From the NCBI GenBank assembly GCA_023474975.1, contig JAMCXE010000003.1, positions 1-35,300 on the forward strand: 35,300 nt of DNA. The letters run 5' to 3'. The notes below the pieces were generated by a model that did no database searches, was not told where the DNA came from, and was given only the letters and a program-made list of their open reading frames with translations. Positions 14,510-33,747 of the stretch are shown piece by piece; the stretch's first letter is position 1, and each line of letters opens with the position of its first letter. A program made the position numbers and the translations under genes. Origin of the DNA: Patescibacteria group bacterium. Its GTDB lineage: Bacteria; Patescibacteriota; Minisyncoccia; UBA6257; 02-FULL-45-10c.

Positions 14510-14871
14510 ACCGGGTTTAAAAGATTTTTAATTAAATGTTTACGACTTAATTTACTACGACTTAATTTATATTGTTATTAAACCACCAAGCCGCTGTCTA
14601 TTTCAATCCCCGTCCGTATCGCATCGATTTTTTTATATTTTTTTGCTATTTGATACAAGTTAATTTTATTACGTAACCAACAGGAGTCAAATAGTGAAAA
14701 TATAACAATGTGTTAATTAGTTGTGGAGAACTTATTTTACACCGATCATGCCCAAGTTGAAAGTCAAAAGTCGAAAGTCGAAAGTTGAAAGTCAAAAAAT
14801 CTGAAAGTTATTAGAAAGTTTTTATTTTTGTAATTTTGACTTTTGAGCTTTGACTTGTTATTCTATTTGAT
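14510..14871. other. Divergent dnaA/rpmH intergenic region; candidate oriC and promoter region
   Basis: Classical oriC location. DnaA-box-like tgtggagaa at 14722-14730 has 1 mismatch to TGTGGATAA. The 13-bp direct repeat acgacttaattta occurs twice at 14542-14569. Contains AT-rich tracts. Confidence 0.4.
14757..14856. repeat. Heptamer tandem repeat NRAAAGT (5-7 copies) followed by its inverted copy, forming a long imperfect palindrome
   Basis: tgaaagt caaaagt cgaaagt cgaaagt tgaaagt at 14758-14792, more copies at 14802-14819, and inverted ttttgacttttgagctttgactt at 14834-14856. Confidence 0.7.
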
Positions 14872-15006
14872 ATGTCACAAACTTATCAACCAGCAAAAAA
14901 GAAGAGGGCTAGAGCGCATGGTTTTCTAAAAAGAATGAAGACGCCGGGTGGAAGGCGCGTTTTGGCAAGCCGCAGAATAAAAGGCAGGAAGAGATTGGCC
15001 GTTTAA
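14872..15006 (+). CDS. rpmH: 50S ribosomal protein L34
   Basis: Below the ORF-track cut-off. My translation reads [44 protein letters not shown] (44 aa, stop TAA 15004-15006). Canonical position upstream of rnpA. Confidence 0.9.
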
Positions 15007-16585: not shown

Positions 16586-16616
16586 AAAAAACCACCCAAA
16601 AAGGGTGGTTTTTTAT
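16586..16616. terminator. Bidirectional rho-independent terminator between convergent genes
   Basis: aaaaaaccaccc-aaaaa-gggtggtttttt, with A/T runs on both sides. Sits between jag (+) and the last gene of the minus-strand cluster. Confidence 0.7.
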
Positions 16617-16618
16617 TG

Positions 16619-17779
16619 CTAAAGGCTGAGCGAGTAAACTTTGTTATCGTAACGATTTACAAATAAAAGGCTGTTATCTTTTATTTTTAGATCATAGGCA
16701 TCAAGCGGGACGTCATTTCCGTCAAATATTTTCGTGATTTTCCCAGTCGGCAGATTCATTTCAAAAATATCATCAACGAAGTAGTCGTTTTTACTATAGT
16801 AATCATCGGGAAGAGCTATCCCCGATCGAATATTCTTAGGAATGCCGCAATATATTATTTGAGAGTTGGAGCTGAATACGCATTTTTCCGGAACGGTTAC
16901 AAATGGAAGGCTGACAAGATTATTGCATAGGTCGTCTACAATGCTTAACTTTGGCATCCTTTCGGCGGAAATCAGTTTTATTCCCAGGTCACCCTTATCC
17001 GCCCATTTTATATCCGTTCCATAATCTCCGCTTGTGAGCATTTTTAGTGTTTTGGTAGCGGTATCGAATGAATAAACATATCCGCTTATATCAATTGCTG
17101 GATCGCTATAAAATAAGATCTTCTGATCGGTTATCCAGTTTAAATTAAGTCCGGCCTGGCTCATATTTTGTAATTGGCTTGTTTTTTGCGTGGTCAGATC
17201 TAGGACGTTAAGAGCTTTTTCGTTGGTATAAGCAACTTTTTTGGAGTCTGGAGAAATGGTAGCCGATATTGTGCTTACCGGAAGGGGCTGCCAGCTGGTG
17301 GAGCTGGCTGAAAAAATACTGAAAGTTGGAAGCTGAGGATAATTAAATTCGGCTATTGCCAGCGAGCCGTCTTTTGACGGGATTATAGAATGCAGATTAG
17401 TAATAGTTTGGGGGCTAACAAGCTGCCTAGTATTGTCGTTATTTATTTTTATAATTTGTCCTGCTAAATTAGCGAAGTAAACACTGCCGTCTTTTGAATT
17501 AAGCCAATATTCGGAAACCGGTGTATCAATAAATATGGAAAGCTTTTGAGTGACCGTTTGAGGGGTTTGGGTTGTCGTTTGCTCGGATGTGTTTATCGGG
17601 GCTCCAATTGCGCCGCCTTCGCCTACATTCGTTACTTCGGTGGTAGGCACCCCTCCTGTTCCGGTTAGATTACCGGTATTTCTTGAATTTAACCACTTCC
17701 AAAGGAAATAAGCGCCAATTATGATCGCGATGACTATTAATACTATAGCTATTATTTTTAATATGCGTTTGTAGTCCAT
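16619..17779 (-). CDS. Membrane-anchored protein with TolB-like (PD40/beta-propeller-like) repeats; last gene of the T4SS-like cluster
   Basis: 386 aa with N-terminal TM helix IIAIVLIVIAIIIGAYFLW. Repeated motifs SKDGSVYF, SKDGSLAIAEF and SPDSKKVAYTNE are typical of PD40-type propeller blades. Confidence 0.55.
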   Translation of the reverse strand: MDYKRILKIIAIVLIVIAIIIGAYFLWKWLNSRNTGNLTGTGGVPTTEVTNVGEGGAIGAPINTSEQTTTQTPQTVTQKLSIFIDTPVSEYWLNSKDGSVYFANLAGQIIKINNDNTRQLVSPQTITNLHSIIPSKDGSLAIAEFNYPQLPTFSIFSASSTSWQPLPVSTISATISPDSKKVAYTNEKALNVLDLTTQKTSQLQNMSQAGLNLNWITDQKILFYSDPAIDISGYVYSFDTATKTLKMLTSGDYGTDIKWADKGDLGIKLISAERMPKLSIVDDLCNNLVSLPFVTVPEKCVFSSNSQIIYCGIPKNIRSGIALPDDYYSKNDYFVDDIFEMNLPTGKITKIFDGNDVPLDAYDLKIKDNSLLFVNRYDNKVYSLSL

Positions 17780-17795
17780 TTGGTTATCTTATTAA

Positions 17796-19142
17796 TTAAG
17801 GAAGGCAGTTTCCGTCCGGTCCCGTATATCCGCTTGCGCAATATTTCGGGGGAACGACCGGTGTTGGAACAACGCATTTTCCCGCAGAATCCTTTCGATA
17901 TCCAGATTCGCAATTATTACAGGTGGTATTTGTGTCGTGTGCATAGCCAGTGGGGCATGGAGTTAGAACTAAATTTGAGGCATTGCATGTACCATCAGGC
18001 TGTCTTACGAGATTGGTTTTACAAACACAGGCTCCGTTAACTAGGTCGTTTCCGTCCGCGCATTTTGTGCAGACCATTTCGCTGGAATTAGAAGACGATA
18101 AACTAGAAACTTGTTGTCCATTATTAGTTGTATTTAAACTAAACATTCCGCCAGTGGTACCGTATACTAAGCACCCAGGTGATCCAGATCCAGAAGTTTC
18201 CGATACTGAATTATTGCTTCCACTAGTAGAACACCCATTTTTTGTGGTTGCGTCTAATTTACAATTTGGTCCACACGGCTGGGATATATTTGAATAATCA
18301 GGGGTTATTTGAGAGCAGTCGGTTACTTGAGTGGCTGGAGGCAAGAAAGAATCTAGATCGATCGGCTCCAGGCCGGGGTTTTTTAAATTAACTAAATTCG
18401 GATTTATTGTGTAAAGAATTAAATAGGCTCCGAGGAGAAGAAGTATTCCGTATATGGCATTCAACATCCACGTCTTACCCTCTTCTTTGGAAGCCATATT
18501 TCCGGCAGACAGGGTGTACAAAGCAGCTCCATATATTACCGCACCTAAAGCCACGAATCCGACGATCATCAGGCCGAATTGATAAAGTCTGGCAATATAT
18601 CCCGCCGGGTTATCAGGGGTTGGACACTGGCCGTTTATTCCAAGAGCGTTGGGATTGCATGGAATAGTAACTTTAAGTTCATACGGTTTTATTGTTGCGC
18701 TAAGATTGGCGTCTTGAGGCATTACGTTTTGAGGTATTGAAGCCATGACACACCTCCATCCAGTACCTGAACCAACAGGACAATCTGTTACCGTGTAAGT
18801 ACAAACTGTACCGCTTGGGCATGGTATTACGGTTTTGTCGCAGAGAGCATTTTTTCCACTAATTGCAGTTCCAACTGATGCGCAATCACCATTAGACTTA
18901 TAAGTTGTTGGTCCGCTTGGTGATGGAGCAATATTTTCCCCAATAGTTCCTTTTGCAACGCATATACCCGGTTCCGGCGTGATATGCCATTCGCAATTTG
19001 TATTTGGTGCCGTGCAACTACTGGAGTCTAGTTTCGAACAATCAATTGATGTTTGTGCAAAACTCACCGGAATTGAATTAAAGACAAATAAAAATCCCAT
19101 CAATGAAACTGCAAATATTTTTTTAAAATAGTTTAAATTCAT
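17796..19142 (-). CDS. Cys-rich secreted/membrane protein containing a VirB2/TrbC-like (T4SS pilin-like) TM hairpin
   Basis: 448 aa with a signal peptide (..IPVSFAQT). The central hairpin is YQFGLMIVGFVALGAVIYGAALYTLSAGNMASKEEGKTWMLNAIYGILLLLGAYLILYTINP. About 28 Cys residues all lie outside the hairpin. The C-terminal motif C-x2-GY-x(6-8)-C occurs three times. Confidence 0.55.
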   Translation of the reverse strand: MNLNYFKKIFAVSLMGFLFVFNSIPVSFAQTSIDCSKLDSSSCTAPNTNCEWHITPEPGICVAKGTIGENIAPSPSGPTTYKSNGDCASVGTAISGKNALCDKTVIPCPSGTVCTYTVTDCPVGSGTGWRCVMASIPQNVMPQDANLSATIKPYELKVTIPCNPNALGINGQCPTPDNPAGYIARLYQFGLMIVGFVALGAVIYGAALYTLSAGNMASKEEGKTWMLNAIYGILLLLGAYLILYTINPNLVNLKNPGLEPIDLDSFLPPATQVTDCSQITPDYSNISQPCGPNCKLDATTKNGCSTSGSNNSVSETSGSGSPGCLVYGTTGGMFSLNTTNNGQQVSSLSSSNSSEMVCTKCADGNDLVNGACVCKTNLVRQPDGTCNASNLVLTPCPTGYAHDTNTTCNNCESGYRKDSAGKCVVPTPVVPPKYCASGYTGPDGNCLP

Positions 19143-19256
19143 TTTTTATTTTTTGTTGTTGTGAGGGATTTGCGATGTGACAACTTGTTAGTGAGATCGT
19201 TTTGGCGGCGCTCGTAATGACGGGTATTTGTAATTTAGTAATTAGTTATTGGCTGA

Positions 19257-20009
19257 TTACTTTATATCTAAATTGACATAATTTCTTGCGAATTCATAGT
19301 AGCTAGCCGGATTTTGAATGGTGATATTTATGCCCGTATTGGCGCCGACCGCAGGATTTCCTTGCGTAGTGGTCGTTAAATTAAGGATGGATGGGTTTCC
19401 AGATTGGCCAGAAACATCGGAGCCGTCAACGTTCCAAGAAATATTAAGCTGGCTTGGATCAGAAACATTGAAGAAATAAGGTATGGCCTGAAGTGGATTG
19501 GTGCCGACCTTAATAGTTCTGGCTGGATAGGGCGCATTTATAACAGCCTTTGCTTGCGTAGTTGGAATTGTAGTTAGCCCCTCTAAATCACCCATTGGAT
19601 ATTTGGCGTCTTTATATTTGGGGATGCTGATGCTTATCTGAGGGTTTACTTGATTGACGGTAAACTTTACAGATTTTAATCCTACCCCCGATTGCAAAAG
19701 ATTGTCGCCTAAATACCAAAGTATGTTTTGCTCGGAAAGATCTACAAATTTGCCCTGATCAAGGCAATCGAAGCTTACTTCTACCGAAGAGCCGATCGTA
19801 GGCATAACTTTCCCCGGGTAATTTGCTGGTACATAATTGGTCGCGCGCCAGGAAATCAAAAAATCAAAGTTGGGATTGATGGGTGTGGTAGTAATAGAAG
19901 GGATGTTTGGGGCAACTTGAGCATTTGCGGATGACCCGATAAGCATTCCTAAAATAGCTAAATACGCTAAGGAAGATGCGTTTTTTTTGATTAGATCGAT
20001 CAGCTTCAT
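19257..20009 (-). CDS. Secreted hypothetical protein (signal peptide, beta-rich)
   Basis: 250 aa. The N-terminal region AYLAILGMLIGSSANAQ looks like a signal peptide. I recognise no domain. Confidence 0.55.
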   Translation of the reverse strand: MKLIDLIKKNASSLAYLAILGMLIGSSANAQVAPNIPSITTTPINPNFDFLISWRATNYVPANYPGKVMPTIGSSVEVSFDCLDQGKFVDLSEQNILWYLGDNLLQSGVGLKSVKFTVNQVNPQISISIPKYKDAKYPMGDLEGLTTIPTTQAKAVINAPYPARTIKVGTNPLQAIPYFFNVSDPSQLNISWNVDGSDVSGQSGNPSILNLTTTTQGNPAVGANTGINITIQNPASYYEFARNYVNLDIK

Positions 20010-20059
20010 AATACTTTTTAATTATACATCAAAACAATAAATCAAAACAATTTAAAGTA

Positions 20060-20521
20060 TTAAACTTTTCCAGTCACAGCAGAAGCCTTGTCCGCGGCCT
20101 TATTTATGACTTTGCCAACGGCGCCAGTTTTTTTCAGTATACTCTCCGCTTTCTTCATACCAAACCAGTCTATGTAAACAACTATTCCCCATCCAATAGT
20201 GGATGGTATGAGCGCGCCGATATATGGCATTGCCGTTATTACCCCTACTACTAAACTGGTCAGCCAGATCTCTTTCCCCATTTTTTTTATGACAATAAAA
20301 TAGAATTCGCTGATCGATGTGCGAATCATGCTTATTATTCCAAAATCAGATAATCCAAACAGAAACAGGAAAAGCTCTAGGGTATCAGATATCAAGTAGA
20401 AAGGAGTTATGATAACTATTTCCCACATTGATAATTTTGGCTTGTATTCTTCCTGTTCATCTTCTTTTTTTGGAGCGGTCGCGCGCTTGTTTGGCCGTAT
20501 TATAGGATTTTGTTCGGGCAT
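20060..20521 (-). CDS. Hypothetical integral membrane protein (3-4 TM)
   Basis: 153 aa with a charged N-terminus followed by hydrophobic helices. Starts 12 nt downstream of the VirB4-like gene. Confidence 0.55.
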   Translation of the reverse strand: MPEQNPIIRPNKRATAPKKEDEQEEYKPKLSMWEIVIITPFYLISDTLELFLFLFGLSDFGIISMIRTSISEFYFIVIKKMGKEIWLTSLVVGVITAMPYIGALIPSTIGWGIVVYIDWFGMKKAESILKKTGAVGKVINKAADKASAVTGKV

Positions 20522-20533
20522 GTTTTGATTTAA

Positions 20534-22249
20534 TTAAGCATTTTGCTGTTGGAGAATTTGCTCTGGTTTTGTAGTAACAATTTTATCTTCAAGATAAGAC
20601 GCTATTATTTTAATGGCAACATGATTAAGTCCGGCAAAGAAAAGTCCCTCACCTACCGCAGCTTCAAGCAGAAGATTTTTTTCGCCCTCTGTAAGTCCAA
20701 AAGATTTTATAATGAGATCTATCATTGTTGGCGACTGTTTCAATAAAAGCTGCAAAGAGGAATTGGTGATGATCGGGCGGCCATAGGGAGATTTAAGGAA
20801 GTCTTCCACGTCTTGTGTGATCGTGGTGACTCCAAGATAATATTTTCTGCATCTCTTTACTAAGCCAAACATAAAAGAGGCTCCGTCTTCGTATTTCATA
20901 AGCACCCACGCCTCATCTACTATCAGTACTCTTTTTTTGAGCTCTGCTCTAATCAAGCTCCAGATGAAATTCAAGACGATATACATAGCGATCGGCCTAA
21001 GCTCTTCTTCCAGGTCACGGATAGAAAAAACTATTAATCGATTTTTTATATCAACATTGGTTGGCTGATTGGTGAAACCGGCGTAGCTGCCTTGAGTATA
21101 TTTATAAAGGCGCTGCGCCATTGTTTTTCCTCCCTCCATGTTTTCCAAAATTTTTTGAAGATCTTCTAGAAGCGGCGGAATCGCTTTGCTAAAATCTTTA
21201 CCCGGAGCGATATCATGAGAGGCGTAGGTTTCGGAAATGGCTCTATCTAAAAGAGCATCTTCTTCTGGGGTAAGCTGGCCCATCATTAATTTTAACAATC
21301 CGGCAATATTAACAATGTGTGAACGCAAAACATCACTTGGATCTTCGTCTTTGGGTATGATCGGAAGGTCGAAGGGATTGATGTGGTGCTGGGAGGCCAG
21401 AGAGATCCTAAAATAACTTCCGCCAACGGAAGATGCCAGCGCTTCATATTCATTTTCCGGATCTATGATCAAGATATCAGTTCCCATCATAAGCAGACGC
21501 AATGCTTCGAGTTTGACTGCATAGCTTTTTCCGGCACCCGCTTTAGCAAAAACAACCATATTGGCATTCTCTAAAGAAAATCTATCAAAAACTATCATCG
21601 AATTATTACTTTCATTGATCCCATAAAGTATTCCGTTGTCGGAGGTAAGATCCGCTGAAGTGAATGGGAAGAATGATGATAGCGGTCCGGAATTGAGAGG
21701 ATTGTAAATTAATAAGCGATCTTGACCGAGCGGAATGGACGAGCTAAATCCTTCAGTTTGTTGAAATAATGCTGGTTTTATATAGACTAGTCGGCTTTCG
21801 AGCAGATTGGTTATTCTCCCTTCTAATTTGTTTAGTTGCTCTATCGTTTCAGCATAAATGGTGATATAGACGCTTACATTAAAAAGCTGTTCGCGCGCTT
21901 GTTGAAGCGAATCTCTTAGTCCCTCAATATCTTGAAATGCGGTTTCAAGCATTGGGTCTCTTACCACGCCCTTTTCTTGTTTTTCATATATTTGAGATTC
22001 GACCTGAGCCGCTTTCTTTCTAAGTTGTTTTAACGCTAGGTTTGTTTCTATAGGATGAACGAAGATAGATATATCTATAAGATCGGGCATATCTATGATT
22101 TGAGAGAACCAGCCAGTGGAAAGAAATCGCGGGTAAGAAAATATAAAAAGAGTTTTGGCTAGCTTGTCGCCAATTTTTATGAAATTTGAATTCACTTCCA
22201 CTGCCGCCGGGGCAATTATGTCTATTATATTTTTTGCTGTATCAGCCAT
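20534..22249 (-). CDS. virB4: VirB4/TrbE/CagE-like type IV secretion ATPase (short form)
   Basis: 571 aa. Walker A FAKAGAGKSYAVK, Walker B RVLIVDEAWVLM, and downstream GVTTITQD. The overall architecture is VirB4/AAA_10-like. Confidence 0.85.
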   Translation of the reverse strand: MADTAKNIIDIIAPAAVEVNSNFIKIGDKLAKTLFIFSYPRFLSTGWFSQIIDMPDLIDISIFVHPIETNLALKQLRKKAAQVESQIYEKQEKGVVRDPMLETAFQDIEGLRDSLQQAREQLFNVSVYITIYAETIEQLNKLEGRITNLLESRLVYIKPALFQQTEGFSSSIPLGQDRLLIYNPLNSGPLSSFFPFTSADLTSDNGILYGINESNNSMIVFDRFSLENANMVVFAKAGAGKSYAVKLEALRLLMMGTDILIIDPENEYEALASSVGGSYFRISLASQHHINPFDLPIIPKDEDPSDVLRSHIVNIAGLLKLMMGQLTPEEDALLDRAISETYASHDIAPGKDFSKAIPPLLEDLQKILENMEGGKTMAQRLYKYTQGSYAGFTNQPTNVDIKNRLIVFSIRDLEEELRPIAMYIVLNFIWSLIRAELKKRVLIVDEAWVLMKYEDGASFMFGLVKRCRKYYLGVTTITQDVEDFLKSPYGRPIITNSSLQLLLKQSPTMIDLIIKSFGLTEGEKNLLLEAAVGEGLFFAGLNHVAIKIIASYLEDKIVTTKPEQILQQQNA

Positions 22250-22270
22250 AATATTTTTTTAAATTCATGT

Positions 22271-22972
22271 TTATTGAGCAACCTTTTTCTCTATTGTGCT
22301 GGGATTGTATAGGTTGTAGAAAAGCTCGGAAAGTTCTTCGTCGTTTAATGGCACAACTCTGAGCCCGATCTGATTTAAGCCGTCGACGACCTCGCCGACC
22401 CTTTGATCGAGTTGTTCAAGATATTCTTTCTCCGTTTGTTTTTTTTCATCCCCCTCATTTTTTTTCTTTCCAAAGAGGCCGAATACGGCGCTCTTAAGGC
22501 CGGCGCCGGTATCTGAAACACGTATGGGATCTAGCGGGACAACCACAAAAAAGTTTTTGGACATTATTGCATTTTGAGAAACAAAGGATTTTATAAATTC
22601 CCTGTATTCAAATATTTGATTCTTCAAAAGCTCGTTGGTCTCTTGATTTTCTCTTTCCTCTACTTTTCTTAAATAATTGTCGATATTTATTTTTCTTGAA
22701 TGTATAAAAATTTGAAGAGTGAAATCAACGGAATTCAAAAAACCTTGAAAGGCGGAGGTTATCATTTCCTGCTCTTCGGCCGATTTGAGATCGAAGTTTA
22801 TTCCCGAAACAATGAGTATCCTCCTATATGCCCCACCCCTTAGCTTTATTACGCCGTTATTAATAGAATCGATATTAACGAATTGTTGTGTAGCGAAAGA
22901 CGGTTCTTTTGATTCTTGTATGTTAGGCATATGTTTAAGTATACAATTGTTTAATTCTTTATTTATAATCAA
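22271..22972 (-). CDS. Hypothetical soluble protein resembling a VirB4 N-terminal module
   Basis: 233 aa. The pattern FVNIDSINNGVIKLRGGAYRRILIVSGINFDLKSAEEQEMITSAFQGFLNSVDFTLQIFIHS parallels the N-terminus of the adjacent ATPase. The track start is TTG 22972; ATG at 22930 is an alternative. Confidence 0.5.
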   Translation of the reverse strand: MIINKELNNCILKHMPNIQESKEPSFATQQFVNIDSINNGVIKLRGGAYRRILIVSGINFDLKSAEEQEMITSAFQGFLNSVDFTLQIFIHSRKINIDNYLRKVEERENQETNELLKNQIFEYREFIKSFVSQNAIMSKNFFVVVPLDPIRVSDTGAGLKSAVFGLFGKKKNEGDEKKQTEKEYLEQLDQRVGEVVDGLNQIGLRVVPLNDEELSELFYNLYNPSTIEKKVAQ

Positions 22973-23471
22973 CTCTTCGGGCCATCTCTTTCTCTCCGGT
23001 TATTTTTCTGAAAACCTCGTATTTTTCCTGATGCGATCTGAATTGATCAAAAATAGCCGGCTGAGTCGTTTTTTCTCTAGCTGGTATGGGGGTTTTTGAA
23101 GTAAGAAGTTTTTGCCATATATCGTTCAATGGATTTGCGCCTTCTTTTATCTGTGCGGGCTCTTTCGTTTTTTCTATTTTTTGGCCGGGGGCGGCAGTTT
23201 TTTTCCAAAGATAAAATTTAGGCTTCCAGAAATAACCAATAGCTGCGCTAACTATTTTAGGCAGTGGAATGCCGTTTATTTTTATGAAGGCCAAAGATAT
23301 TGTAGCTGTATTTATCAGCACTATCGAAAAGGCCCAAAGCCACAAATTAAAGAAGAAGAATAAGAAAAAAGAAAGGCCGGCGCCGATCGTGATGTAGACG
23401 AATTGCTTAAGGGTTAGCGGCCCGATTATCTTGTCTTCTGTGTCTATAAATTGAGGGACTTGAAACTGCAT
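22959..23471 (-). CDS. PrgI/TcpE-family (VirB3-like) membrane protein
   Basis: MQFQVPQFIDTEDKIIGPLTLKQFVYITIGAGLSFFLFFFF.. followed by a second TM helix, which is the characteristic PrgI-family N-terminus. I prefer ATG 23471 over the track's TTG 23483. Confidence 0.6.
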   Translation of the reverse strand: MQFQVPQFIDTEDKIIGPLTLKQFVYITIGAGLSFFLFFFFNLWLWAFSIVLINTATISLAFIKINGIPLPKIVSAAIGYFWKPKFYLWKKTAAPGQKIEKTKEPAQIKEGANPLNDIWQKLLTSKTPIPAREKTTQPAIFDQFRSHQEKYEVFRKITGEKEMARRVDYK

Positions 23472-23507
23472 ATGTTTGACCAACGACTAACAACTGACGA
23501 CTTACGA

Positions 23508-23864
23508 CTAATGAGTTAATAATTTTTTCTTAAAACCACCCAATTGACTAGAGATACTTGATAACTTTACAAAAAGTATATCAAACTCTGCTTTGGTTAT
23601 AAAACCACTATCTTTTAATATATCTGGCGCGGCTAGTGTTTCACTAACGGAGCCTAGTGCTATTTCTATATATCTGTTGAGTTCCTTGTCAGATGTTTTA
23701 CCACTACCCTCGGCGATATTCAGAACAATTGAAAGAGCTGACCGTATTAATTGACTACCTATCTCGTATCTATATTCTTTTGGTGTTTTTTAACTATGTA
23801 TAATTGCTAGCACTTCTTTAGAATCTGTATAAGCTTTCCATTTCAAAAATCTGATTTTTTCCAT
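23508..23864 (-). pseudogene. Four-helix-bundle protein (23S rRNA intervening-sequence protein family) interrupted by an in-frame TAA
   Basis: My translation reads MEKIRFLKWKAYTDSKEVLAIIHS*KTPKEYRYEIGSQLIRSALSIVLNIAEGSGKTSDKELNRYIEIALGSVSETLAAPDILKDSGFITKAEFDILFVKLSSISSQLGGFKKKLLTH. The NIAEGSG..S.KE...Y..IALGS signature is present. The TAA is codon 25 (23790-23792), in the same frame on both sides. Confidence 0.6.
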
Positions 23865-23871
23865 TTTGTCG

Positions 23872-24966
23872 TTAGTTGTTGGTTGTAGGTTGTTTGTTGC
23901 TTCTAAGATCAATCGTATTTCCGTTGAGTTTGGTAAACGTGGATAAATTGATGTAGTCTTCTTTTTTGGGTTCTGGTTTTTGGGGCGCTCCAGATGGGGT
24001 CAGCGGAGTTTTGAAATTGCTGTAATGGACGGTTCTTATTGGCTCGGATTTAGCTGTTTGAGTTGATTCGCTTGGTTTGAGCTCGGAGATCGGTTTTTCA
24101 AATATTTGTGATGGCGGTATTGCTGGATTGGGTGTAACTTTTTCGCTATTGGGTTGAGCGGGTGCAATCGGTTGCCGAGCTTCGATCACGGGTTTGGGAT
24201 TGATAAAAACGGGCATGCTGAATTTTTTTGCGCCCTCTTTTTGCTCGGTTTCTATTTTAATGGATACCGGTTTAACAACATTTGGTTTATTTATGAGCGA
24301 GGGTTCTACTTTTAGGTTCAATGATATTGATTCTTTAGTGATTTGAGGGATCGTGGGTTTTACCGGCTCTGTTTTTGTTTGAATGATAAATGGGGTTTCG
24401 GCAATTGGCGCAGTCGGTTGTGCGGATTTTATTGGTTGTGGATTTATAGATGCGACTCCTGCGCCCATGGTGGGAATTTTTGGTGCGATCGGAGTGGCCG
24501 GCTGAGTCGGCATTGAAGACAGCGGCTTAGCTCCTGAAAATTCCGGATGAATATCGTTTGCTGTCGGGGCGTTGTTTTTTTCAAGATTTACGATTTTGGG
24601 CAATACCTCTTCTTGCGGTTCCTCGGCAATTTTTGGCGGATTATAAATTTTAGCCAGATCGTCTTTAAGGTTGTTAAATAACTTTTGTTTAAGCTCTATC
24701 TCAATGAAATTGGCTTTTTGCATATCAATATCGAAATATTGGTGCAGCTCCGAAGCGATCTCCTCCGGCTTTGTATAGCCCAAAAAAACTTCACCTACCA
24801 GCAAAGCAACATCTTTTACTTTATCCTCGGAAATACTGTAGTCTCGGCAAACACTAGAAATGAGCTGGACGTTTTTGTCGGCCAGCATTTCTTTTTTTAA
24901 TTTTTCTGGAAGCGCTTCAAACCTTTTTTGCGCTTCTTGTTTTTCGGATTCGTAGTTGTTCGTCAT
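23872..24966 (-). CDS. Hypothetical protein with a folded N-terminal domain (about 110 aa) and a long Pro-rich low-complexity tail
   Basis: 364 aa with no TM segment. The tail is rich in P, T, K and I repeats (PKIAEEPQEE.. PTQPATPIAPKIPT.. PVKPTIPQ..). Confidence 0.55.
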   Translation of the reverse strand: MTNNYESEKQEAQKRFEALPEKLKKEMLADKNVQLISSVCRDYSISEDKVKDVALLVGEVFLGYTKPEEIASELHQYFDIDMQKANFIEIELKQKLFNNLKDDLAKIYNPPKIAEEPQEEVLPKIVNLEKNNAPTANDIHPEFSGAKPLSSMPTQPATPIAPKIPTMGAGVASINPQPIKSAQPTAPIAETPFIIQTKTEPVKPTIPQITKESISLNLKVEPSLINKPNVVKPVSIKIETEQKEGAKKFSMPVFINPKPVIEARQPIAPAQPNSEKVTPNPAIPPSQIFEKPISELKPSESTQTAKSEPIRTVHYSNFKTPLTPSGAPQKPEPKKEDYINLSTFTKLNGNTIDLRSNKQPTTNN

Positions 24967-24988
24967 TTGCTATTCCGCTAGTAATTAA

Positions 24989-27019
24989 TTATTTTCCTTC
25001 TTCCTGTTTAGCTTTTGTTTCTTTCATGAATTTTTTTAGTTCTTTTATATCCTTATCTGAGGCATTGTTAGATTTAGATTTTTTAATAAGTTCCTCGCTT
25101 TCGGAGATCTTTTTATGAAGATCGTTAACTTTTTGCAATGTATTTTCTTTAGAATTTTTTACCAGCCTTGTTAGATTGATAATGCGTTCTTGTGCGATTC
25201 TCTTTTCTTCCGGGTTCGTTATTTTAGCTATTTTAGCATTTAGTTCCGCTAGGTCTTTTTCGAATATAGCCGATCTGTCACCTCCACCCGCGTTGCCCCG
25301 AGCTTCTTTTTGTTGGCTTGCGGAAATGATCGTTTGTTGATTTATGCTTATTGGCTGATCTATCGCCGTTTTAGTTGCTCTGACATTCTCTAGTGCTTTG
25401 GCTATACCGTCTCTTTCTTGTTCTAGTTTTGACAAATCTGAACCTTGAGGATTTTTACGCGCAGCATCTATCTCTAGCATTTTCTCCTCCCATTTCTTAT
25501 TAAGCTCCCCTTCCTCTTCTGTTAATGCCGACTTCATTGTTAATTTTTCTTTCTCCGCGAATTCTTTTTCTGGACCAGCTTGCTTTGTTTTTTCATTTTC
25601 TGTACGCTCATTTTCTTTCTCTTTATATTCCTTCTCTTCTTTTAAGCGTAATTTTCTAGAGTTCCAGCCTAAGCCGGCGCCGATTTCTTCTGATGTGGCG
25701 GTATAAATTCCGCTAAGGCCACCATATGTTTTTTGGAAGTCTTCTGAGGATTTGGCGACTTGTCTAAGCGGCCTTGTCGCGCTTCTGACCAAGCCATACT
25801 TTGAATTTTTATACTTTTCACCAAATTCTCCAACTTTCTTAGCAGCAAATCCAAGACCAGTAAGACCTATTGCTGTAGACGCGGTTCCTTTTAAGATGCC
25901 ATTTATTGCTCCGGTTGCAGCATTAGTAGTCCATTTTCCCGCAATGCCAGAACCCTCTTCGGCTTTTTTAATACCATACATCAGTATCGCAACCACCATG
26001 ATCATAGAACCGATGTTCGGACCCATACTTTGTATCACGTGACTCGGGTCGTCAACCAAAGCTTTTTGCATATTTGGTGTGTCCACAATGCCTTGTATTG
26101 CGGTATAGGATTTAAGCGCTATGTAAATGTAAAATCCGGCGATTGGTCCGAAGAATGTTTGCTGTAAAAATTTTTTAGACCAATCTGACCAGCCACTTCC
26201 TCCTATTACCCAACCTATTATTGCAGCCGGTAAAGTTATTAAAAGAATGCCGATAATCACATATCTCATCAAGAACATTGCCGCTAATCCGAACATGGTG
26301 ATGGCGCCAACTGCCGTAATTATATCGGCAAATATCAGGCTTGCTAATACCTGTACTGTGGCTGCGCCAAAATTAAGAAGGGTAGAGTTAGGATCGAGCG
26401 TTGGAGGCTGCAATACTTTATACATTTGCATTGCGCTAGACAGCGCTTGAGCGACGCCGCCGTTACCGGATTGACTATTGAAGGAAGCTAGGAAGAAATT
26501 TGTAAGCATTCCGGCGAAATCAAGAACTACAGTTGCCAGGAGTAAGCTAAAGTTAATAAGAAGAGCCGCTATTATAAGCTTAGGTAGAGCTTTTTTAACT
26601 TGCAGTGAACCGGTATTTAAAATAGTTTCAAATGCAATGATTATTATTAAAAATACAAAGGCGAGATTGGCAATATCCCTGGTTATCGGCCAGCCGATCT
26701 GAACTGCAGGATTATCAACAATATTAGAATTTAATTCCAAAACCCAGTTTAATATTATTCCGCCTAAAAAAAGAGCGAGATGGAAAAAATACCCCAGAAC
26801 ATACAATAGTAAGGTGAGTATCCAGGATACCGCTGTCATTATGCTTTTGCCTGGATTTGTAATGAAATCTAGCGCGCTGGGTGTCGATGGCGCGTTTGAT
26901 GCCACCTGAGTAGCAGATGACGCAGCCTGCTGGGCGTGGGCAAAACTATGCGGTATTAATAAAAACACCGCCACTAATAGTCCGACAAAAATTATTTTCC
27001 TTATGTCTATTTTTTTCAT
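24989..27019 (-). CDS. VirB6/TrbL-like polytopic membrane protein with a long Lys/Glu-rich coiled-coil C-terminal tail
   Basis: 676 aa. Signal peptide (..HSFAHAQQ), about 8 hydrophobic helices over residues 60-400 or so, then about 230 aa of charged coiled coil. The assignment rests on topology and context only. Confidence 0.5.
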   Translation of the reverse strand: MKKIDIRKIIFVGLLVAVFLLIPHSFAHAQQAASSATQVASNAPSTPSALDFITNPGKSIMTAVSWILTLLLYVLGYFFHLALFLGGIILNWVLELNSNIVDNPAVQIGWPITRDIANLAFVFLIIIIAFETILNTGSLQVKKALPKLIIAALLINFSLLLATVVLDFAGMLTNFFLASFNSQSGNGGVAQALSSAMQMYKVLQPPTLDPNSTLLNFGAATVQVLASLIFADIITAVGAITMFGLAAMFLMRYVIIGILLITLPAAIIGWVIGGSGWSDWSKKFLQQTFFGPIAGFYIYIALKSYTAIQGIVDTPNMQKALVDDPSHVIQSMGPNIGSMIMVVAILMYGIKKAEEGSGIAGKWTTNAATGAINGILKGTASTAIGLTGLGFAAKKVGEFGEKYKNSKYGLVRSATRPLRQVAKSSEDFQKTYGGLSGIYTATSEEIGAGLGWNSRKLRLKEEKEYKEKENERTENEKTKQAGPEKEFAEKEKLTMKSALTEEEGELNKKWEEKMLEIDAARKNPQGSDLSKLEQERDGIAKALENVRATKTAIDQPISINQQTIISASQQKEARGNAGGGDRSAIFEKDLAELNAKIAKITNPEEKRIAQERIINLTRLVKNSKENTLQKVNDLHKKISESEELIKKSKSNNASDKDIKELKKFMKETKAKQEEGK

Positions 27020-27042
27020 TTTCTAAGACTGGTTCCAATTAT

Positions 27043-28647
27043 TTATGGTGTAGTAGACGGAGCGGGCGTCATATAGTTGGCACAGGCAGAAAGAATGTCT
27101 TGGTATCCGCCGTTATCAGAATTGGTTTGTAGAATACTATTAGAATAATTTTGTATGCTGGAAAGTTCGGTTTGTGATGTGGCTAGGGCTTGTGTTGCTT
27201 TTTGCTGATCCATGGTTCCGTTAGTTACTAAATTTGAATAAGTCTTAGTCATTAGAGCCTCGCTGGTACTATCTGTTGGATCCATAGCATTAAATTGAGC
27301 TTGAGTGCTTTGTATTATAGCAATATCGTTTTGAACATCAGAAAGCTCTGATTGTAGTCCGTCTAGTGTCGGCTGAATAACATTATTGATCGTATCGGAT
27401 ATTATATTGGAACTGGTTAGATTGGAAATTTGTAATGTCTCTCCGTTGGGAAACGCTTTGGAAAGATCACAGGTAAGGAAATCGTTGAGCGCGGTCTTGA
27501 TAGCAGACTCAGTATTTATCGATTGATTTATGTTGGTTGCGGTGTTTTGTTTTATGCCCAGAACGGTATTAAAGTTAGAATTGAATAATGTGCGATCATT
27601 TTTAAAAATAAGAGAATTGATCTGGGCGAAACTTGCGTTTTGATAATCGGCATAAGCGGTATTGGTATTATCGCTATCTTTGTATCCTAATGCTCCGGCA
27701 ATTCCGTTCATCGCTAATAAGCTATATCGGTATATTACCGCATCGGCTAATGCTCCAATATATCCCGCAACGTCGTCAGCGGTTAATATCCCCGCAACTT
27801 TATTTGTATCGGTATACGTATTCCAAACCGACTGCGCTATTTGATTTCCGGGTGTAAGTGTTCGGCATACCTTCTGGTGAGTTTGAGGATCGATTTTGCA
27901 TTGCTCTTGAGGTTTGTATCCGGCACTGATCTGAGCGTCTATAGTTTTGGACTTCATAACATCGGCAAGAGTTGTTTCTTGTTTATCTTCTGTTATTAGC
28001 GTCGTGCCAAAAAAGTTATTTTGCGGCTCCCATAGGGTGTTATAGGTAAGCCATCTCCCCTTGCTTTGTTTGTCAAAGCTTTTGAAAAGATCGTCTATAT
28101 TTCCAACGATAGTGTTTAATGTGCAAGTTACATCGGCTCCGGGCTGCTGTTGAGGACTGAACAAGCTTAATGCTACGTTAACTTTTATCGGAGAGCAAAG
28201 AAATGGCAATGTTTGCTGAGCGAGCATTCCAACTGCCTCTTGCCCCGCTTGTTGAAAAAAAGCACCCCAATCGGAAACAATCGGACCGCCCTTACCCTCA
28301 AATCCGCCATTTTTGATCCATTCAGCCGCTGCATTGGCTAGCCTATCTAGTACTAATTTTTTTAAAGCTTGACCAGCCACTTGTTTTAAAATAGTAAGAA
28401 AACTTTGTGTTTTATCGCTTGCTGCCTTAGCTGCCACCGCCGCATTGGCGCCCGCCGAAGCCGCGGTGCTTATATTTATAGCTGCAATGTCAATTGCCAT
28501 AGGGCTCATAGGAGATTCAAATGTTGTTGTGATATCCCCGACTCCCAATACTGCGTAAGCTTTTTTGGGCATAAATAATCCCGGACCGAATAATAGGCTT
28601 GTCAGTACTAGCCCAACAACTATTTTTTTATAAAAATTTAAAGACAT
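27043..28647 (-). CDS. Large secreted hypothetical protein
   Basis: 534 aa with a signal peptide (..MPKKAYAV). I recognise no domain. Starts 3 nt after the upstream gene. Confidence 0.55.
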   Translation of the reverse strand: MSLNFYKKIVVGLVLTSLLFGPGLFMPKKAYAVLGVGDITTTFESPMSPMAIDIAAINISTAASAGANAAVAAKAASDKTQSFLTILKQVAGQALKKLVLDRLANAAAEWIKNGGFEGKGGPIVSDWGAFFQQAGQEAVGMLAQQTLPFLCSPIKVNVALSLFSPQQQPGADVTCTLNTIVGNIDDLFKSFDKQSKGRWLTYNTLWEPQNNFFGTTLITEDKQETTLADVMKSKTIDAQISAGYKPQEQCKIDPQTHQKVCRTLTPGNQIAQSVWNTYTDTNKVAGILTADDVAGYIGALADAVIYRYSLLAMNGIAGALGYKDSDNTNTAYADYQNASFAQINSLIFKNDRTLFNSNFNTVLGIKQNTATNINQSINTESAIKTALNDFLTCDLSKAFPNGETLQISNLTSSNIISDTINNVIQPTLDGLQSELSDVQNDIAIIQSTQAQFNAMDPTDSTSEALMTKTYSNLVTNGTMDQQKATQALATSQTELSSIQNYSNSILQTNSDNGGYQDILSACANYMTPAPSTTP

Positions 28648-28650
28648 TTT

Positions 28651-29421
28651 TTATTTAATCAATTGATTATTTTTAATGAATGTATTTTTGTCATTTTTTA
28701 AAACATTATATTGCTGGTAGACATTTGATAGTTCATTAACCGCCAGACTGGCTACGAAAGGATCTTGGTCCATATTGGCCAGGGCTTGATATATATTTTT
28801 TTCAGCGGTTAGTAGCTCTATTTCTTTTTTATCTATAGCTAGAAGTTCCGCCGGAACGGTTAAATTATAAAAATCTTTTATGGTTGAATTATAAACATTG
28901 ACCATCTGGATAAAATCGGAAGATTTAATATTTTCTACAGAAGAAAGAAGGCTTTTTGGTAATTTTTGGCCATTACTTAATATTATTGCATTGAAAGATA
29001 AAAAATAGTTTACAAGAGCATCTTTGCTGTTATCATTGGATATTTTAATGTCAGAATCGTTAATTGTTGGGTATAAACTTTTTGGGTCAAAATTTTTCTG
29101 CGCTTCGGCGAATAGATCATTGGCGAGATTTTCGGGTTTTGGTATAGCAACGTAATTTTGCCCATTCATTGTTATCGCCCCGTTAGGATTGACCGATGTC
29201 ATTTCGGCGGCGATCTTTTTTGCAAAAACCTCGCTTAAATTTACAGTTGAAGATGCTTGGGAGAGGGATATTTCCGTTCCGACCGGATTATTATTTACTA
29301 TATCAAGGCTGCTATTATTCGCTTGGGGGGCGGCCGGAGCAGAGCCGGAAACTATAAAATAAGCTCCGCCAAATCCGAGCCCTAAAAATAAAATAGTAAT
29401 GAGTATCTTTGATCGGCTCAT
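28651..29421 (-). CDS. N-terminally membrane-anchored hypothetical protein; first gene of the T4SS-like cluster
   Basis: 256 aa with TM anchor ILITILFLGLGFGGAYFIV. I recognise no domain. Confidence 0.55.
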   Translation of the reverse strand: MSRSKILITILFLGLGFGGAYFIVSGSAPAAPQANNSSLDIVNNNPVGTEISLSQASSTVNLSEVFAKKIAAEMTSVNPNGAITMNGQNYVAIPKPENLANDLFAEAQKNFDPKSLYPTINDSDIKISNDNSKDALVNYFLSFNAIILSNGQKLPKSLLSSVENIKSSDFIQMVNVYNSTIKDFYNLTVPAELLAIDKKEIELLTAEKNIYQALANMDQDPFVASLAVNELSNVYQQYNVLKNDKNTFIKNNQLIK

Positions 29422-29428
29422 TACTTAT

Positions 29429-29458
29429 ATTATACAACAAATTTAAATAAAAATGTAA
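29429..29458 (-). promoter_or_regulatory. Candidate promoter of the cluster: TTACAT, 18 nt, TATAAT, with the -10 only 7 nt from the ATG
   Basis: The minus strand reads gTTTACAtttttatttaaatttgttgTATAATataagtaATG. TATAAT maps to plus-strand 29429-29434 and the ATG to 29419-29421. Confidence 0.4.
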
Positions 29459-29482
29459 ACTCTAATATGCAAAATATAAAAA

Positions 29483-30511
29483 TTATAGATCCTTAATAAT
29501 TGATGCAAGTTTTAAGATATCGTTTACGGATAAGTTTTGCGGTCTGGAGTTTAGCGGCAGATCTAATGATCCAAGAGCTTTTTCTATTTGTTCTTTCGGA
29601 ATATCCGATCCGGATCTGAGATTGTTTAGCAATGTTTTTCTTGGTTGCTTGAAGATCGTGTGAATTAGTTTGTAATAGTTTTCTATTTCTTTTGCGAGAT
29701 TCTCATTTTTTATCTTGTCATTGCGAGAAGTCTGCGGCGCGGCAATCTCATGATGCATAGATCGCTTCGCTTTGCTCGCAATGACAGATTGGAGACTGTT
29801 AATTTCTTTTTTGGTGATTAGTCTAATAACGGCAGAATCAACATCTGGCGCGGGTTCGAAATCGGTAGGCTTCAGTTTAAAAATAATTTCTGGTTCTGCC
29901 CAGAATTGAGTTGCCGCCGCAAGCAAATTCATTCCGCTATAAACTGTTTTTATTCTGTCATTGCGAGGTCTCGCCCGTAGGGCTGCGACCGAGGGAGTCT
30001 GCGACGCGGCAATCTCATTAAGTCCAGATTGCTTCGGCAGCACTCGCAATGACGGTTTTGGTTGAGCGGCGATTCTTTCGGCTACTTCTTTTTGGACCAT
30101 TATAACGGTCAATTTTGGTTTGTATTCAAGCTCGCTAATAATTCTGAGTAATTTTCCGGTTATGTAATATGGGATATTGCCGACAATATTAAATTTTAAA
30201 TTTTTAATTTTTAATTCCTGAACGATTTTTGGCAGAACCTTTAACGCGTCGCCTTCAATGATTTCAACACCGTTTAGTTTTAAATTTTGAACTTTATTTT
30301 TCAGCTCGGTTGCCAATTCCCGATCTTTTTCTATGGCAATTATTTTAAAATTAGAAAGTGTAAGCTTAAAGCTTTCTGCCATAGGCAGGGTAAGCGCTCC
30401 TTTGCCGGGACCGATCTCGATAATTACATCGCCCTCCTCGATATTCAAGGCCGCGACTATTTTAGAAATAGCAACTTTATTTTTCAAGAAGTGTTGACCG
30501 AGTTTTTGCAT
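29483..30511 (-). CDS. rsmA: 16S rRNA (adenine1518/1519-N6)-dimethyltransferase RsmA/KsgA carrying two in-frame repeat insertions
   Basis: LGQHFLKNKVAISKIV, IIEIGPGKGALT, FNIVGNIPYYIT, MVQKEVAERI and FEPAPDVDSAVIRL. At 342 aa it is longer than is usual for this family because of two GC-rich inserts. Confidence 0.85.
   Translation of the reverse strand: MQKLGQHFLKNKVAISKIVAALNIEEGDVIIEIGPGKGALTLPMAESFKLTLSNFKIIAIEKDRELATELKNKVQNLKLNGVEIIEGDALKVLPKIVQELKIKNLKFNIVGNIPYYITGKLLRIISELEYKPKLTVIMVQKEVAERIAAQPKPSLRVLPKQSGLNEIAASQTPSVAALRARPRNDRIKTVYSGMNLLAAATQFWAEPEIIFKLKPTDFEPAPDVDSAVIRLITKKEINSLQSVIASKAKRSMHHEIAAPQTSRNDKIKNENLAKEIENYYKLIHTIFKQPRKTLLNNLRSGSDIPKEQIEKALGSLDLPLNSRPQNLSVNDILKLASIIKDL
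29717..29785. repeat. 69-bp GTCATTGCGAG...CTCGCAATGAC palindromic element inside the rsmA CDS
   Basis: Ends at 29717-29727 and 29775-29785. 69 bp equals 23 codons. Translated as ..VIASKAKRSMHHEIAAPQTSRND.. Confidence 0.75.
29957..30053. repeat. 97-bp GTCATTGCGAG...CTCGCAATGAC palindromic element inside the rsmA CDS
   Basis: Ends at 29957-29967 and 30043-30053. Shares the core agtctgcgNcgcggcaatctcat with the 69-bp copy. Translated as ..SLRVLPKQSGLNEIAASQTPSVAALRARPRND.. Confidence 0.75.
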
Positions 30512-32659: not shown

Positions 32660-32724
32660 TTTTATGGTATTTTGTATATATTATTGATATCTTACGACAA
32701 CAATTAAATAAAGCAAAGGATTTG

Positions 32725-33747
32725 ATGCGCCATTTAAAAGATTGGAAGATCGCCGCGCCCATTATTTTGGTTTTTGTCGCTACATTGTTTAATTGGCGGC
32801 TTTCTATATATTTAGAAAAACCTTGGGGTATTTTCAGCGCTGCCGATTCAGCTTTGGCGGAGGTATCTTCTGATATTCCCGAAAATAATATAGGCGATTC
32901 TGTCGGTGCAATAAGCGGAATGGGATCGATTGATGGAGAAAGTTCTTATAACGTCGCGGATCAGGTAAATTTTGTCATAGTGGACAGTTCTTATCTTTTA
33001 AATAAAGATAATCCGCTTAGCGGCGTTTTGCCCGCACGTGGCGGACTTTTAATATACAAGATCCAAAAAGGTGATAATCTTGCCAAAATCGCTGCAAGCT
33101 TTGGAATATCTTTAAATACTATTTTGTGGGCAAATCCGAATTTAAGATCAAATTCCCTTACGCCCGGAAAAGAAATAGTGATATTGCCCGTATCGGGAGT
33201 TTTATACAACGTTAAATCTGGAGATACGATAGAATCCATCGCTCAGGCGTATTCCGTCGATCCGCAAAAGATCATTTCCTATAATCCGGGACTTTCTCCC
33301 GCCAACCTGAATTCTACGCAAACCATTATTATTCCTAATGGCAAGCCAATAGCCAATACGTACAGTGTCGCCAAAAATTTACCCGATTATCCCGGCTATT
33401 TTGCCATTCCGACCACCGGCTGGAATTGGGGAATTTTGCATAATTATAATGCTGTAGATATTGCAAACGCCTGTGGAACGCCGGTTTATGCTTCGGCTGA
33501 GGGATTGGTGCTGGAACAAACTTCTTCGGGATGGAATGGTGGTTATGGTAGCTATATTTTAATTGAGCATCCAAATAATACAAAAACGCGATATGCGCAT
33601 TTATCTAGATCTGTCGTTTCGGTTGGAGATTATGTTTCGCAAGGAGATCTTATAGGATATATTGGCAATACGGGAGAAACTCATGGACCTACGGGATGCC
33701 ATTTGCATTTTGAGGTGATTGGAGCTAAAAACCCATTTGCTAAATAG
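32725..33747 (+). CDS. Membrane-anchored peptidoglycan hydrolase with two LysM domains and an M23 metallopeptidase domain
   Basis: LysM domains YKIQKGDNLAKIAASFGISLNTILWANP and YNVKSGDTIESIAQAYSVDPQKIISYNP. M23 motifs HNYNAVDIA, GTPVYASAEG and HLHFEV. ATG 32725 is preceded by AAGGA; the track starts at TTG 32722. Confidence 0.85.
   Translation: MRHLKDWKIAAPIILVFVATLFNWRLSIYLEKPWGIFSAADSALAEVSSDIPENNIGDSVGAISGMGSIDGESSYNVADQVNFVIVDSSYLLNKDNPLSGVLPARGGLLIYKIQKGDNLAKIAASFGISLNTILWANPNLRSNSLTPGKEIVILPVSGVLYNVKSGDTIESIAQAYSVDPQKIISYNPGLSPANLNSTQTIIIPNGKPIANTYSVAKNLPDYPGYFAIPTTGWNWGILHNYNAVDIANACGTPVYASAEGLVLEQTSSGWNGGYGSYILIEHPNNTKTRYAHLSRSVVSVGDYVSQGDLIGYIGNTGETHGPTGCHLHFEVIGAKNPFAK

Follow-up and report, generated by a model that had tools for sequence, protein, structure and literature searches.

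We analysed a 35.3-kb stretch of DNA from a Patescibacteria group bacterium (assembly GCA_023474975.1, contig JAMCXE010000003.1, positions 1 to 35,300; hereafter the window), in which a 12.8-kb gene cluster on the minus strand, spanning 16619-29421, encodes recognizable components of a type IV secretion system (T4SS). This cluster consists of eleven intact, co-directional open reading frames (ORFs) for proteins of 256, 534, 676, 364, 174, 233, 571, 153, 250, 448 and 386 aa (Table 1), and it is bounded by rsmA on one side and on the other by a convergent terminator common with jag. An earlier sequence-only reading of this DNA had counted twelve ORFs in the cluster and itemised eleven; these eleven are intact, while the twelfth is an interrupted and unrelated gene of the 23S_rRNA_IVP type. 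The gaps of 3-114 nt between neighbouring genes given in that reading are correct if the interrupted gene is included in the count. The 233-aa ORF, which starts with TTG, overlaps the 174-aa ORF by 14 nt.

Table 1. Genes and signals of the T4SS cluster, in the order in which the minus strand is read
Feature	Coordinates	Strand	Basis
Promoter-like element	29429..29459	-	TTTACA (29459-29454), 19-nt spacer, TATAAT (29434-29429); read from sequence
A256: N-terminal transmembrane anchor and mostly helical predicted ectodomain	28651..29421	-	transmembrane scan, AlphaFold2
B534: secreted or anchored protein, predicted C-terminal long-helix bundle	27043..28647	-	alignment, AlphaFold2
C676: VirB6/TrbL-like polytopic membrane protein ("extended VirB6")	24989..27019	-	transmembrane scan, orthologue Pfam matches
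D364: conserved N-terminal domain of roughly 100 aa and proline-rich remainder	23872..24966	-	alignment, transmembrane scan
Interrupted 23S_rRNA_IVP four-helix-bundle gene	23508..23864	-	PF05635 E 2.8e-22, read through stop
F174: PrgI/VirB3-like membrane protein	22959..23483	-	PF12666
G233: detached N-terminal VirB4 domain, TrsD-like	22271..22972	-	NCBIfam matches; fusion in relatives
H571: VirB4 ATPase, C-terminal three quarters, MPF_FATA/CD1110 type	20534..22249	-	NCBIfam, Pfam, Walker motifs
I153: small membrane protein, 2-3 transmembrane segments	20060..20521	-	transmembrane scan, alignment
J250: secreted protein	19257..20009	-	N-terminus by eye, weak orthologue matches
K448: VirB2-like T4SS pilin domain within Cys-rich extensions, signal peptide ahead	17796..19142	-	PF18895, transmembrane scan
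L386: membrane-anchored TolB-like beta-propeller	16619..17779	-	family profile against PDB
Bidirectional intrinsic terminator, common to convergent jag	16586..16616	.	hairpin and flanking A-/T-runs

The ATPase of the system is encoded in two parts. H571 matches the NCBIfam profile conju_CD1110 with an E-value of 7.8e-113 and 378 bits (cutoff 325) over profile positions 185-733 of 752, and it also matches the Pfam families P-loop_TraG and AAA_10. Together with the Walker A (AGAGKS) and Walker B (LIVDEAW) motifs read in its sequence, these matches bear out the VirB4-like ATPase of the sequence-only reading. A match to the CedB profile (1.8e-9, 36.8 bits, cutoff 700) covers the common P-loop region only. 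The adjacent 233-aa protein, which the same reading had left without a family, matches VirB4_plasma (4.5e-10), CD1110 profile positions 1-114 and TrsD (5e-6). In 5 of the 80 relatives compared most closely (L007, L009, L011, L058 and L066; see below), the TrsD-like and ATPase ORFs are fused as one gene of 781-790 aa, which lies at about 9350-11730 in each of the five loci and is collinear with both window proteins. Since the 233-aa protein matches the N-terminus missing from the ATPase, and fused ORFs exist in five genomes, it is the split-off N-terminal domain of VirB4. The split form is the state in most of the 80 relatives, and it is a conserved state rather than a lesion, with split and fused forms coexisting within the class.

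The 174-aa protein encoded next to this domain matches PrgI (PF12666) with an E-value of 7.9e-10 and 39.6 bits (cutoff 27), consistent with the PrgI/VirB3-like assignment made earlier, and a hydrophobicity scan places a transmembrane (TM) hairpin at residues 39-67. The membrane anchor of VirB4 in systems that have been characterised is VirB3.

For the two other T4SS components proposed from the sequence, the orthologues are more informative than the window copies. C676 has about 8 TM segments followed by a coiled-coil tail of roughly 230 aa, of which 33% is K+E. The window copy has no Pfam match; among 47 orthologues, six match TrbL (PF04610, best E-value 6.2e-6) and two match TrbL_4, in keeping with the VirB6/TrbL-like topology recognised earlier. 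A PDB sequence-profile search with the orthologue alignment returned coiled-coil noise only, the tail matching SMC coiled coils. Similarly, K448 carries the VirB2/TrbC-like TM hairpin described in the earlier reading (residues 185-245), flanked on both sides by extensions that contain 28 Cys. Over this hairpin the window protein matches T4SS_pilin (PF18895) at an E-value of 7.3e-4, which is below the Pfam cutoff, but 47 of 49 orthologues match the same family (best 4e-11) and two of 49 match TrbC. At 448 aa the protein is unusually large for one with a pilin domain; its orthologues vary in length between 88 and 1,232 aa and have only the hairpin in common.

We then considered how the cluster is distributed among relatives. 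A survey of one genome per species gave 599 candidate stretches, 547 of which encode a relative of the window VirB4. The close comparison covered the best 80 of these 547; all 80 are metagenome-assembled genomes of Patescibacteria, labelled Harrison-, Wolfe-, Lipton-, Jorgensen-, Colwell- or Zambryskibacteria or Paceibacterota, and their VirB4 proteins are 57-89% identical to that of the window. Synteny was assessed in the 41 loci for which 9-10 kb of flanking DNA was available at either end. Forty of these are collinear in the order M23-uvrD-rsmA-A-B-C-D-PrgI-TrsD-VirB4-I-J-pilin-L, jag-yidC-rnpA, dnaA-dnaN, which is the conserved placement beside rpmH-rnpA-yidC-jag on which the earlier reading had asked for a comparison. 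Profile hidden Markov models (HMMs) detect every subunit family but I153 in 35-41 of the 41 loci: the PrgI-like and VirB6-like proteins are found in all 41, the pilin in 39, D364 in 38, A256 (at the same position), B534 and J250 in 36 each, and L386 in 35, with I153 found in 22. Six further envelope or unassigned proteins are co-conserved in the same order as the recognizable T4SS parts.

VirB4 is also more conserved than DnaA across these relatives, with median identities of 67% and 60%, respectively. The best plasmid-borne VirB4 is 36% identical to that of the window, and the closest plasmid set, at 30-36%, comprises CD1110-family proteins of Firmicutes and Actinobacteria. The locus is thus a vertically inherited core locus and not a mobile element, and an ordinary integrative and conjugative element (ICE) is ruled out because an entire class of bacteria with reduced genomes has kept this gene order. 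This class-wide order, together with the lack of a relaxase, coupling protein or integrase in cis, supports the earlier proposal of a dedicated chromosomal T4SS-type machine.

Of the seven ORFs that the sequence-only reading could not name, the 233-aa and 386-aa proteins can now be assigned, the 250-aa protein is weakly Ig-like, and those of 256, 534, 364 and 153 aa remain without a family. N-terminal anchors or signal peptides, as described in that reading, were seen in the hydrophobicity scan. A256 has a TM segment at residues 6-24 and no Pfam or NCBIfam match. Its AlphaFold2 (AF2) model, which has a mean predicted local distance difference test score (pLDDT) of 66.5, places helices across residues 62-251. 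A VirB8/NTF2-like identity was rejected because the ectodomain is predicted to be helical. B534 has a conserved, Cys-containing N-terminal domain with the motifs W-I-x-G-G, P-Q-N-N and T-P-G, and its AF2 model (pLDDT 55) is confident only at residues 351-529, where it predicts three long helices; no Pfam, NCBIfam or PDB match was found for it. Neither AF2 model matched a PDB structure at E<0.1 in Foldseek. PDB profile searches with the orthologue alignments of both proteins gave coiled-coil noise only and no relative of the conserved N-terminal domain of B534, and an hhalign comparison of A256 with B534 found no relationship. A word-index homologue search with the two proteins returned 9-14 relatives, none of them named or carrying a Pfam domain, and the use of a profile as the query gave no improvement. 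The B534 family proved to be large in an exhaustive profile search, which gave 3,506 representative clusters at E<=1e-3 and still 2,724 when the limit was set at E<=1e-10. Among 67 B534 relatives, Pfam recognised only additional fn3 or PKD domains in occasional members and DUF4141 in a single one. This one DUF4141 match is the sole hint of a VirB5-like nature of the helical bundles, a reading that is unsupported.

The remaining subunits are more varied. D364 contains 44 Pro and no TM segment in the hydrophobicity scan, and it has no Pfam match even at E<=1. I153 has the conserved motifs G-L-D-D-F and P-Y-x-G-A-L-P; no Pfam match was found, nor any relationship to the pilin family by hhalign. 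J250 has a signal-peptide-like N-terminus when read by eye, with no TM segment found by the hydrophobicity scan. Its orthologues show weak matches to BiPBP_C, Rib and PKD and marginal Ig matches in the PDB, which suggest that the protein probably adopts a beta-sandwich or Ig-like fold. The family profile of L386 matches TolB structures at an E-value of 1.2e-10, with weak propeller matches in Pfam, and the window protein has an N-terminal TM segment at residues 9-27.

The interrupted gene takes up the 388 nt that separate the 364-aa gene from the 174-aa gene, and in the sequence as assembled it is broken by an in-frame TAA at 23790-23792. Relatives lack such a gene here, and their D364 and PrgI orthologues are adjacent. 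Because the neighbours are directly adjacent in relatives, the gene is foreign to the machine; it is a lineage-specific, disrupted insertion.

At the downstream end of the cluster, the hairpin of the terminator has a dG of -21.7 kcal/mol and a z-score of -6.09, with 0 of 200 shuffles equally stable, and its flanking A- and T-runs fit the bidirectional function ascribed to it earlier. At the upstream end, the promoter-like element noted in the sequence-only reading is indeed present. It ends 7 nt ahead of the first ATG, and a transcript starting from it would be nearly leaderless. The promoter call is nevertheless without statistical support because sigma-70 consensus matches occur at chance level in this AT-rich DNA, with 33 found in the window against 37 expected from shuffles.

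The whole cluster reads towards the presumed origin in the rpmH-dnaA intergenic region (rpmH/dnaA at 14510-15006), and its transcription probably runs head-on against replication. To the right of dnaA the GC skew of the plus strand is positive, and the coding-strand GC skew at third codon positions (GC3) of the cluster genes is -0.15. The orientation of the cluster, convergent with jag, is kept in relatives. A published "gene dosage" idea leaves this presumed head-on orientation unaddressed. A scan for the DnaA-box consensus showed no enrichment.

Pfam scans confirmed the core genes that had been named on the two flanks and identified rsmA, uvrD and a LysM-M23 peptidase gene on one side and jag, yidC, rnpA and rpmH, followed by dnaA and dnaN, on the other. 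The same scans of the large ORFs in the 35.3-kb window found no VirD4/TcpA coupling ATPase, relaxase or integrase, and Pfam and NCBIfam scans found no cell-wall hydrolase (CHAP/SLT, VirB1-type) within the cluster. The absences claimed in the sequence-only reading therefore hold, that of the coupling protein for the window. In addition, nothing resembling VirB8 or VirB1 was recognised in the cluster, VirB7-10 homologues were likewise not found, no att sites were seen at the locus, and tRNA and Rfam scans of the window found nothing.

Several other features of the surroundings were noted. A LysM-LysM-M23 peptidase gene on the plus strand (32722-33747) lies 3.3 kb, or two genes, upstream of the cluster and occupies the same position in 12 of the 41 relatives; its product could be the missing cell-wall hydrolase, as an analogue of VirB1, although nothing links it to the T4SS. 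A PilB-type T2SSE ATPase is encoded on the minus strand at 5023-6702 (PF00437, E-value 3e-118), so that type IV pilus machinery, too, is encoded near the origin in this organism. The window further contains a palindromic repeat resembling a miniature inverted-repeat transposable element, with the termini TGTCATTGCGAG and CTCGCAATGACA, the core of which has 13 matches against 0.43 expected. Two complete copies (29707-29790 and 29947-30058) lie in frame within rsmA (29483-30511); with them RsmA reaches 342 aa, and its Pfam match is divided. Further copies or half-sites are found at 584, 3176, 3269, 3309, 9905, 19211, 34061, 34098 and 34218, and one degenerate half-site lies within the 114-nt gap between the J250 and pilin genes. 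Finally, a YebC/TACO1-family gene on the plus strand (7493-8035) encodes a protein of only 180 aa, in which the N-terminal domain and C-terminus are intact and part of the middle domain is gone, with no frameshift evident.

Systems of this kind have been described between 2023 and 2025. Wang et al. 2023 (Cell 186:4803; PMC10633639) reported an unusual T4SS of Gram-positive-like type, with pilins, in Southlakia epibionticum ML1, encoded by SEML1_0006-0019 in a cluster without a recognisable relaxase or coupling protein. These genes, pilins included, are essential for the epibiotic growth of S. epibionticum, as determined by transposon sequencing (PMC10633639, PMC12857230). Quinonero-Coronel et al. 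2025 (Microb Genom 11:001409; PMC12102498) found VirB4 in 2,417 of 3,035 Patescibacteria genomes, where it forms a monophyletic clade nested in MPF_FATA, with TrsD as its commonest neighbour and PrgI, VirB6 and VirB2-like pilins also nearby. In Paceibacteria, they located virB4 near dnaA, dnaN, rnpA, ksgA and rpmH. A 2025 review of T4SSs lists the Patescibacteria systems as a distinct newcomer to the superfamily (PMC12857230). The interpretation given in the sequence-only reading is thus supported and already known, matching the published conclusions almost point for point (PMC10633639, PMC12102498, PMC12857230): the system as such, the absence of a relaxase and coupling protein from it and the near-origin position have all been published.

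Taken together, our results indicate that the locus is very probably a chromosomal, vertically inherited T4SS characteristic of Patescibacteria, here in a member of the class Paceibacteria near 'Harrisonbacteria', and that it derives from the conjugation machinery of the Gram-positive MPF_FATA type. In such a machine, VirB4 hexamers would dock on the PrgI/VirB3 and VirB6-like proteins at the cytoplasmic membrane and would energise both the extraction and polymerisation of the pilin and the passage of a substrate. The pilin polymer may form a filament or conduit that reaches the host cell. Because no VirB8-like or VirB1-like protein is recognisable, the wall-spanning and distal parts may be supplied by A256, B534, J250 and the TolB-like L386; these proteins would build the cell-wall-spanning and tip structures, filling the roles that VirB8, VirB1 and adhesins have in Gram-positive systems. 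Conjugation is unlikely for a system without a coupling protein and relaxase, and the machine would instead move something other than relaxase-piloted conjugative DNA between epibiont and host.

Several considerations weigh against this picture. Essentiality is known from a single Saccharibacterium, the cluster of which has a different composition. The wall-spanning part is conjecture, since no VirB8-like or VirB1-like component was found, and the AF2 models of A256 and B534 were built from shallow alignments and lack a structural match. The window copies of the VirB6-like and pilin-like proteins fall below Pfam thresholds, and their putative assignments come from their orthologues. That the cluster is a single operon is inferred only from the spacing of its genes. 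In addition, our view covers 35 kb of the genome, and a coupling protein or relaxase may be encoded in trans.

What the machine transports admits several answers. One sub-hypothesis of the T4SS reading is that it works in reverse, importing host DNA or RNA for an organism unable to make nucleotides, which we regard as a tentative possibility short of an even chance. No coupling protein or relaxase is encoded in cis, and the known systems that are independent of a type IV coupling protein (T4CP) include the importers ComB and Ced. VirB4 also has a match to CedB, which is weak, partial and far below the cutoff. Against the idea, this match is confined to the common P-loop region, none of the cluster proteins was recognised as a nuclease or as binding nucleic acids, and no experiment ties any Patescibacteria T4SS to import. 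Alternatively, the system could subvert the host by exporting effectors or other proteins, either injected into the cell or released at the cell surface, which seems to us somewhat unlikely. The Brucella VirB and Bordetella Ptl systems are protein exporters that also lack a coupling protein, and several of the cluster proteins have signal peptides and could be Sec-exported substrates or tip proteins. However, no candidate effector or chaperone genes are evident in or beside the cluster, and all of its secreted proteins are co-conserved like structural subunits. For the S. epibionticum T4SS it was suggested that the system "may instead export proteins" (PMC10633639), and a 2024 perspective, which calls the role of the T4SS in Saccharibacteria completely unknown, proposes either nucleotide acquisition or effector delivery, the latter as speculation (PMC11665869). 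The same perspective notes that ComEC is dispensable and the T4SS essential, making the T4SS a candidate route for acquiring nucleotides. A preprint on a cultivated relative reports host-RNA feeding and, where parasite and host meet, tubular structures that are possibly T4SS pili (bioRxiv 10.64898/2026.06.21.733656). Given this 2026 preprint, the analogy with the T4CP-less ComB and Ced systems and the nucleotide auxotrophy of the organism, we have a slight preference for the uptake of macromolecules from the host over the export of effectors. A more specific version, in which A256, B534, D364, I153, J250 and L386 form a Paceibacteria-specific extracellular module that replaces the VirB8, VirB1 and adhesin parts and makes a coupling-protein-independent conduit for importing host nucleic acids, is speculative and rather improbable.

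Three further readings were weighed. VirB4, VirB6, VirB3 and the pilin might build an attachment filament that transfers no substrate, in line with the presence of a pilin that Gram-positive T4SSs normally lack, and with the resemblance of the Cys-rich pilin extensions and the Ig-like and propeller proteins to adhesin modules. We consider this unlikely, as type IV pili already serve adhesion and motility in the group (PMC12857230), a PilB-type ATPase is encoded in the window itself, and the extended VirB6-like channel protein is kept throughout the 41 loci. Functional conjugation with a relaxase and coupling protein encoded elsewhere is very unlikely. Only 35 kb of the genome is in view, and VirD4-like homologues are reported from the majority of surveyed Patescibacteria genomes, mostly at a distance from virB4; relaxases, however, were found in just 103 of 3,035 genomes and mostly away from virB4, and the T4CP homologue of S. 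epibionticum is not essential, unlike its T4SS (PMC12102498). The locus is, moreover, fixed beside the origin and collinear across the class. The same data dispose of the remaining candidate, a decaying and now functionless remnant of an integrated conjugative element. In favour of a remnant are the lack of a relaxase, T4CP, integrase and hydrolase, the encoding of VirB4 in two ORFs and the broken four-helix-bundle gene within the cluster. Yet all eleven ORFs are intact, the VirB4 split is conserved in most of the 80 relatives and replaced by a fusion in only five, VirB4 conservation exceeds that of DnaA, order and position are kept in 40 of 41 loci, and no att sites, integrase or tRNA were found. 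We therefore reject both the conjugation and the remnant readings on the synteny and conservation data, and consider the latter effectively refuted.

Nearly all Patescibacteria (the candidate phyla radiation) carry a T4SS cluster beside the replication origin, and it is essential in the one species tested. Few other clues exist to the way in which these ultrasmall bacteria, a very large group that depends on hosts, make their living from other cells. The window provides a clean Paceibacteria example, in which the whole eleven-gene set, beyond the four recognizable parts, is co-inherited across the class. Its residual value lies in several large and conserved subunit families that are still unannotated, for example that of B534 with about 3,500 sequence clusters, and these are obvious targets once a member of the Paceibacteria becomes genetically tractable.

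Among characterised T4SSs, Helicobacter pylori ComB and crenarchaeal Ced resemble the window locus in having a VirB4-family ATPase and polytopic membrane proteins, and in being chromosomal without a relaxase or coupling protein. In contrast, ComB has the diderm components VirB7-10 and Ced has CedA, CedA1 and CedA2, and neither component set was found in the window. The MPF_FATA conjugative modules, such as CTn2/CD1110 and the Prg/Pcf system of pCF10, have in common with the window the PrgI-VirB4 core and the order of membrane protein, PrgI and VirB4. These modules, however, reside on mobile elements, carry a VirD4 T4CP, PcfB, a CHAP/SLT hydrolase, MobC and a relaxase, and lack a pilin, with a VirB4 of about 800 aa that is unsplit, whereas the window locus lacks all of these genes and is fixed in the chromosome, with a split VirB4 and a pilin. 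In the module of the Lacticaseibacillus plasmid pMGB0734-1 (L. paracasei), for instance, we find PcfB, VirD4, membrane proteins, PrgI, an unsplit VirB4, a CHAP hydrolase, MobC and a relaxase; the VirD4, CHAP hydrolase, MobC and relaxase of this canonical module are all four missing in the window. The window retains just the PrgI-VirB4 core and a polytopic membrane protein, to which are added a pilin and envelope proteins of its own.

Within the Patescibacteria, the S. epibionticum T4SS is likewise Gram-positive-like, has pilins and lacks a relaxase and coupling protein in its cluster, and it probably lies close to where the genome record starts, judging by its low locus-tag numbers. S. epibionticum belongs to a different class, Saccharimonadia, and has six divergent pilins in an array where the window has one; it also encodes a peptidase and a lysozyme homologue, both essential, directly downstream of virB4, whereas the window cluster has no hydrolase inside. 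The closest counterpart is the Paceibacteria arrangement described in PMC12102498, the main text of which does not name A256, B534, D364, I153, J250 or L386. The two have the same MPF_FATA VirB4, TrsD-like protein, PrgI/VirB3, putative VirB6-like protein and VirB2-like pilin, the same lack of a relaxase and of a nearby T4CP, and the same place near dnaA, dnaN, rnpA, ksgA (rsmA) and rpmH. There is no essential difference between them, and the window represents one more instance of this arrangement.

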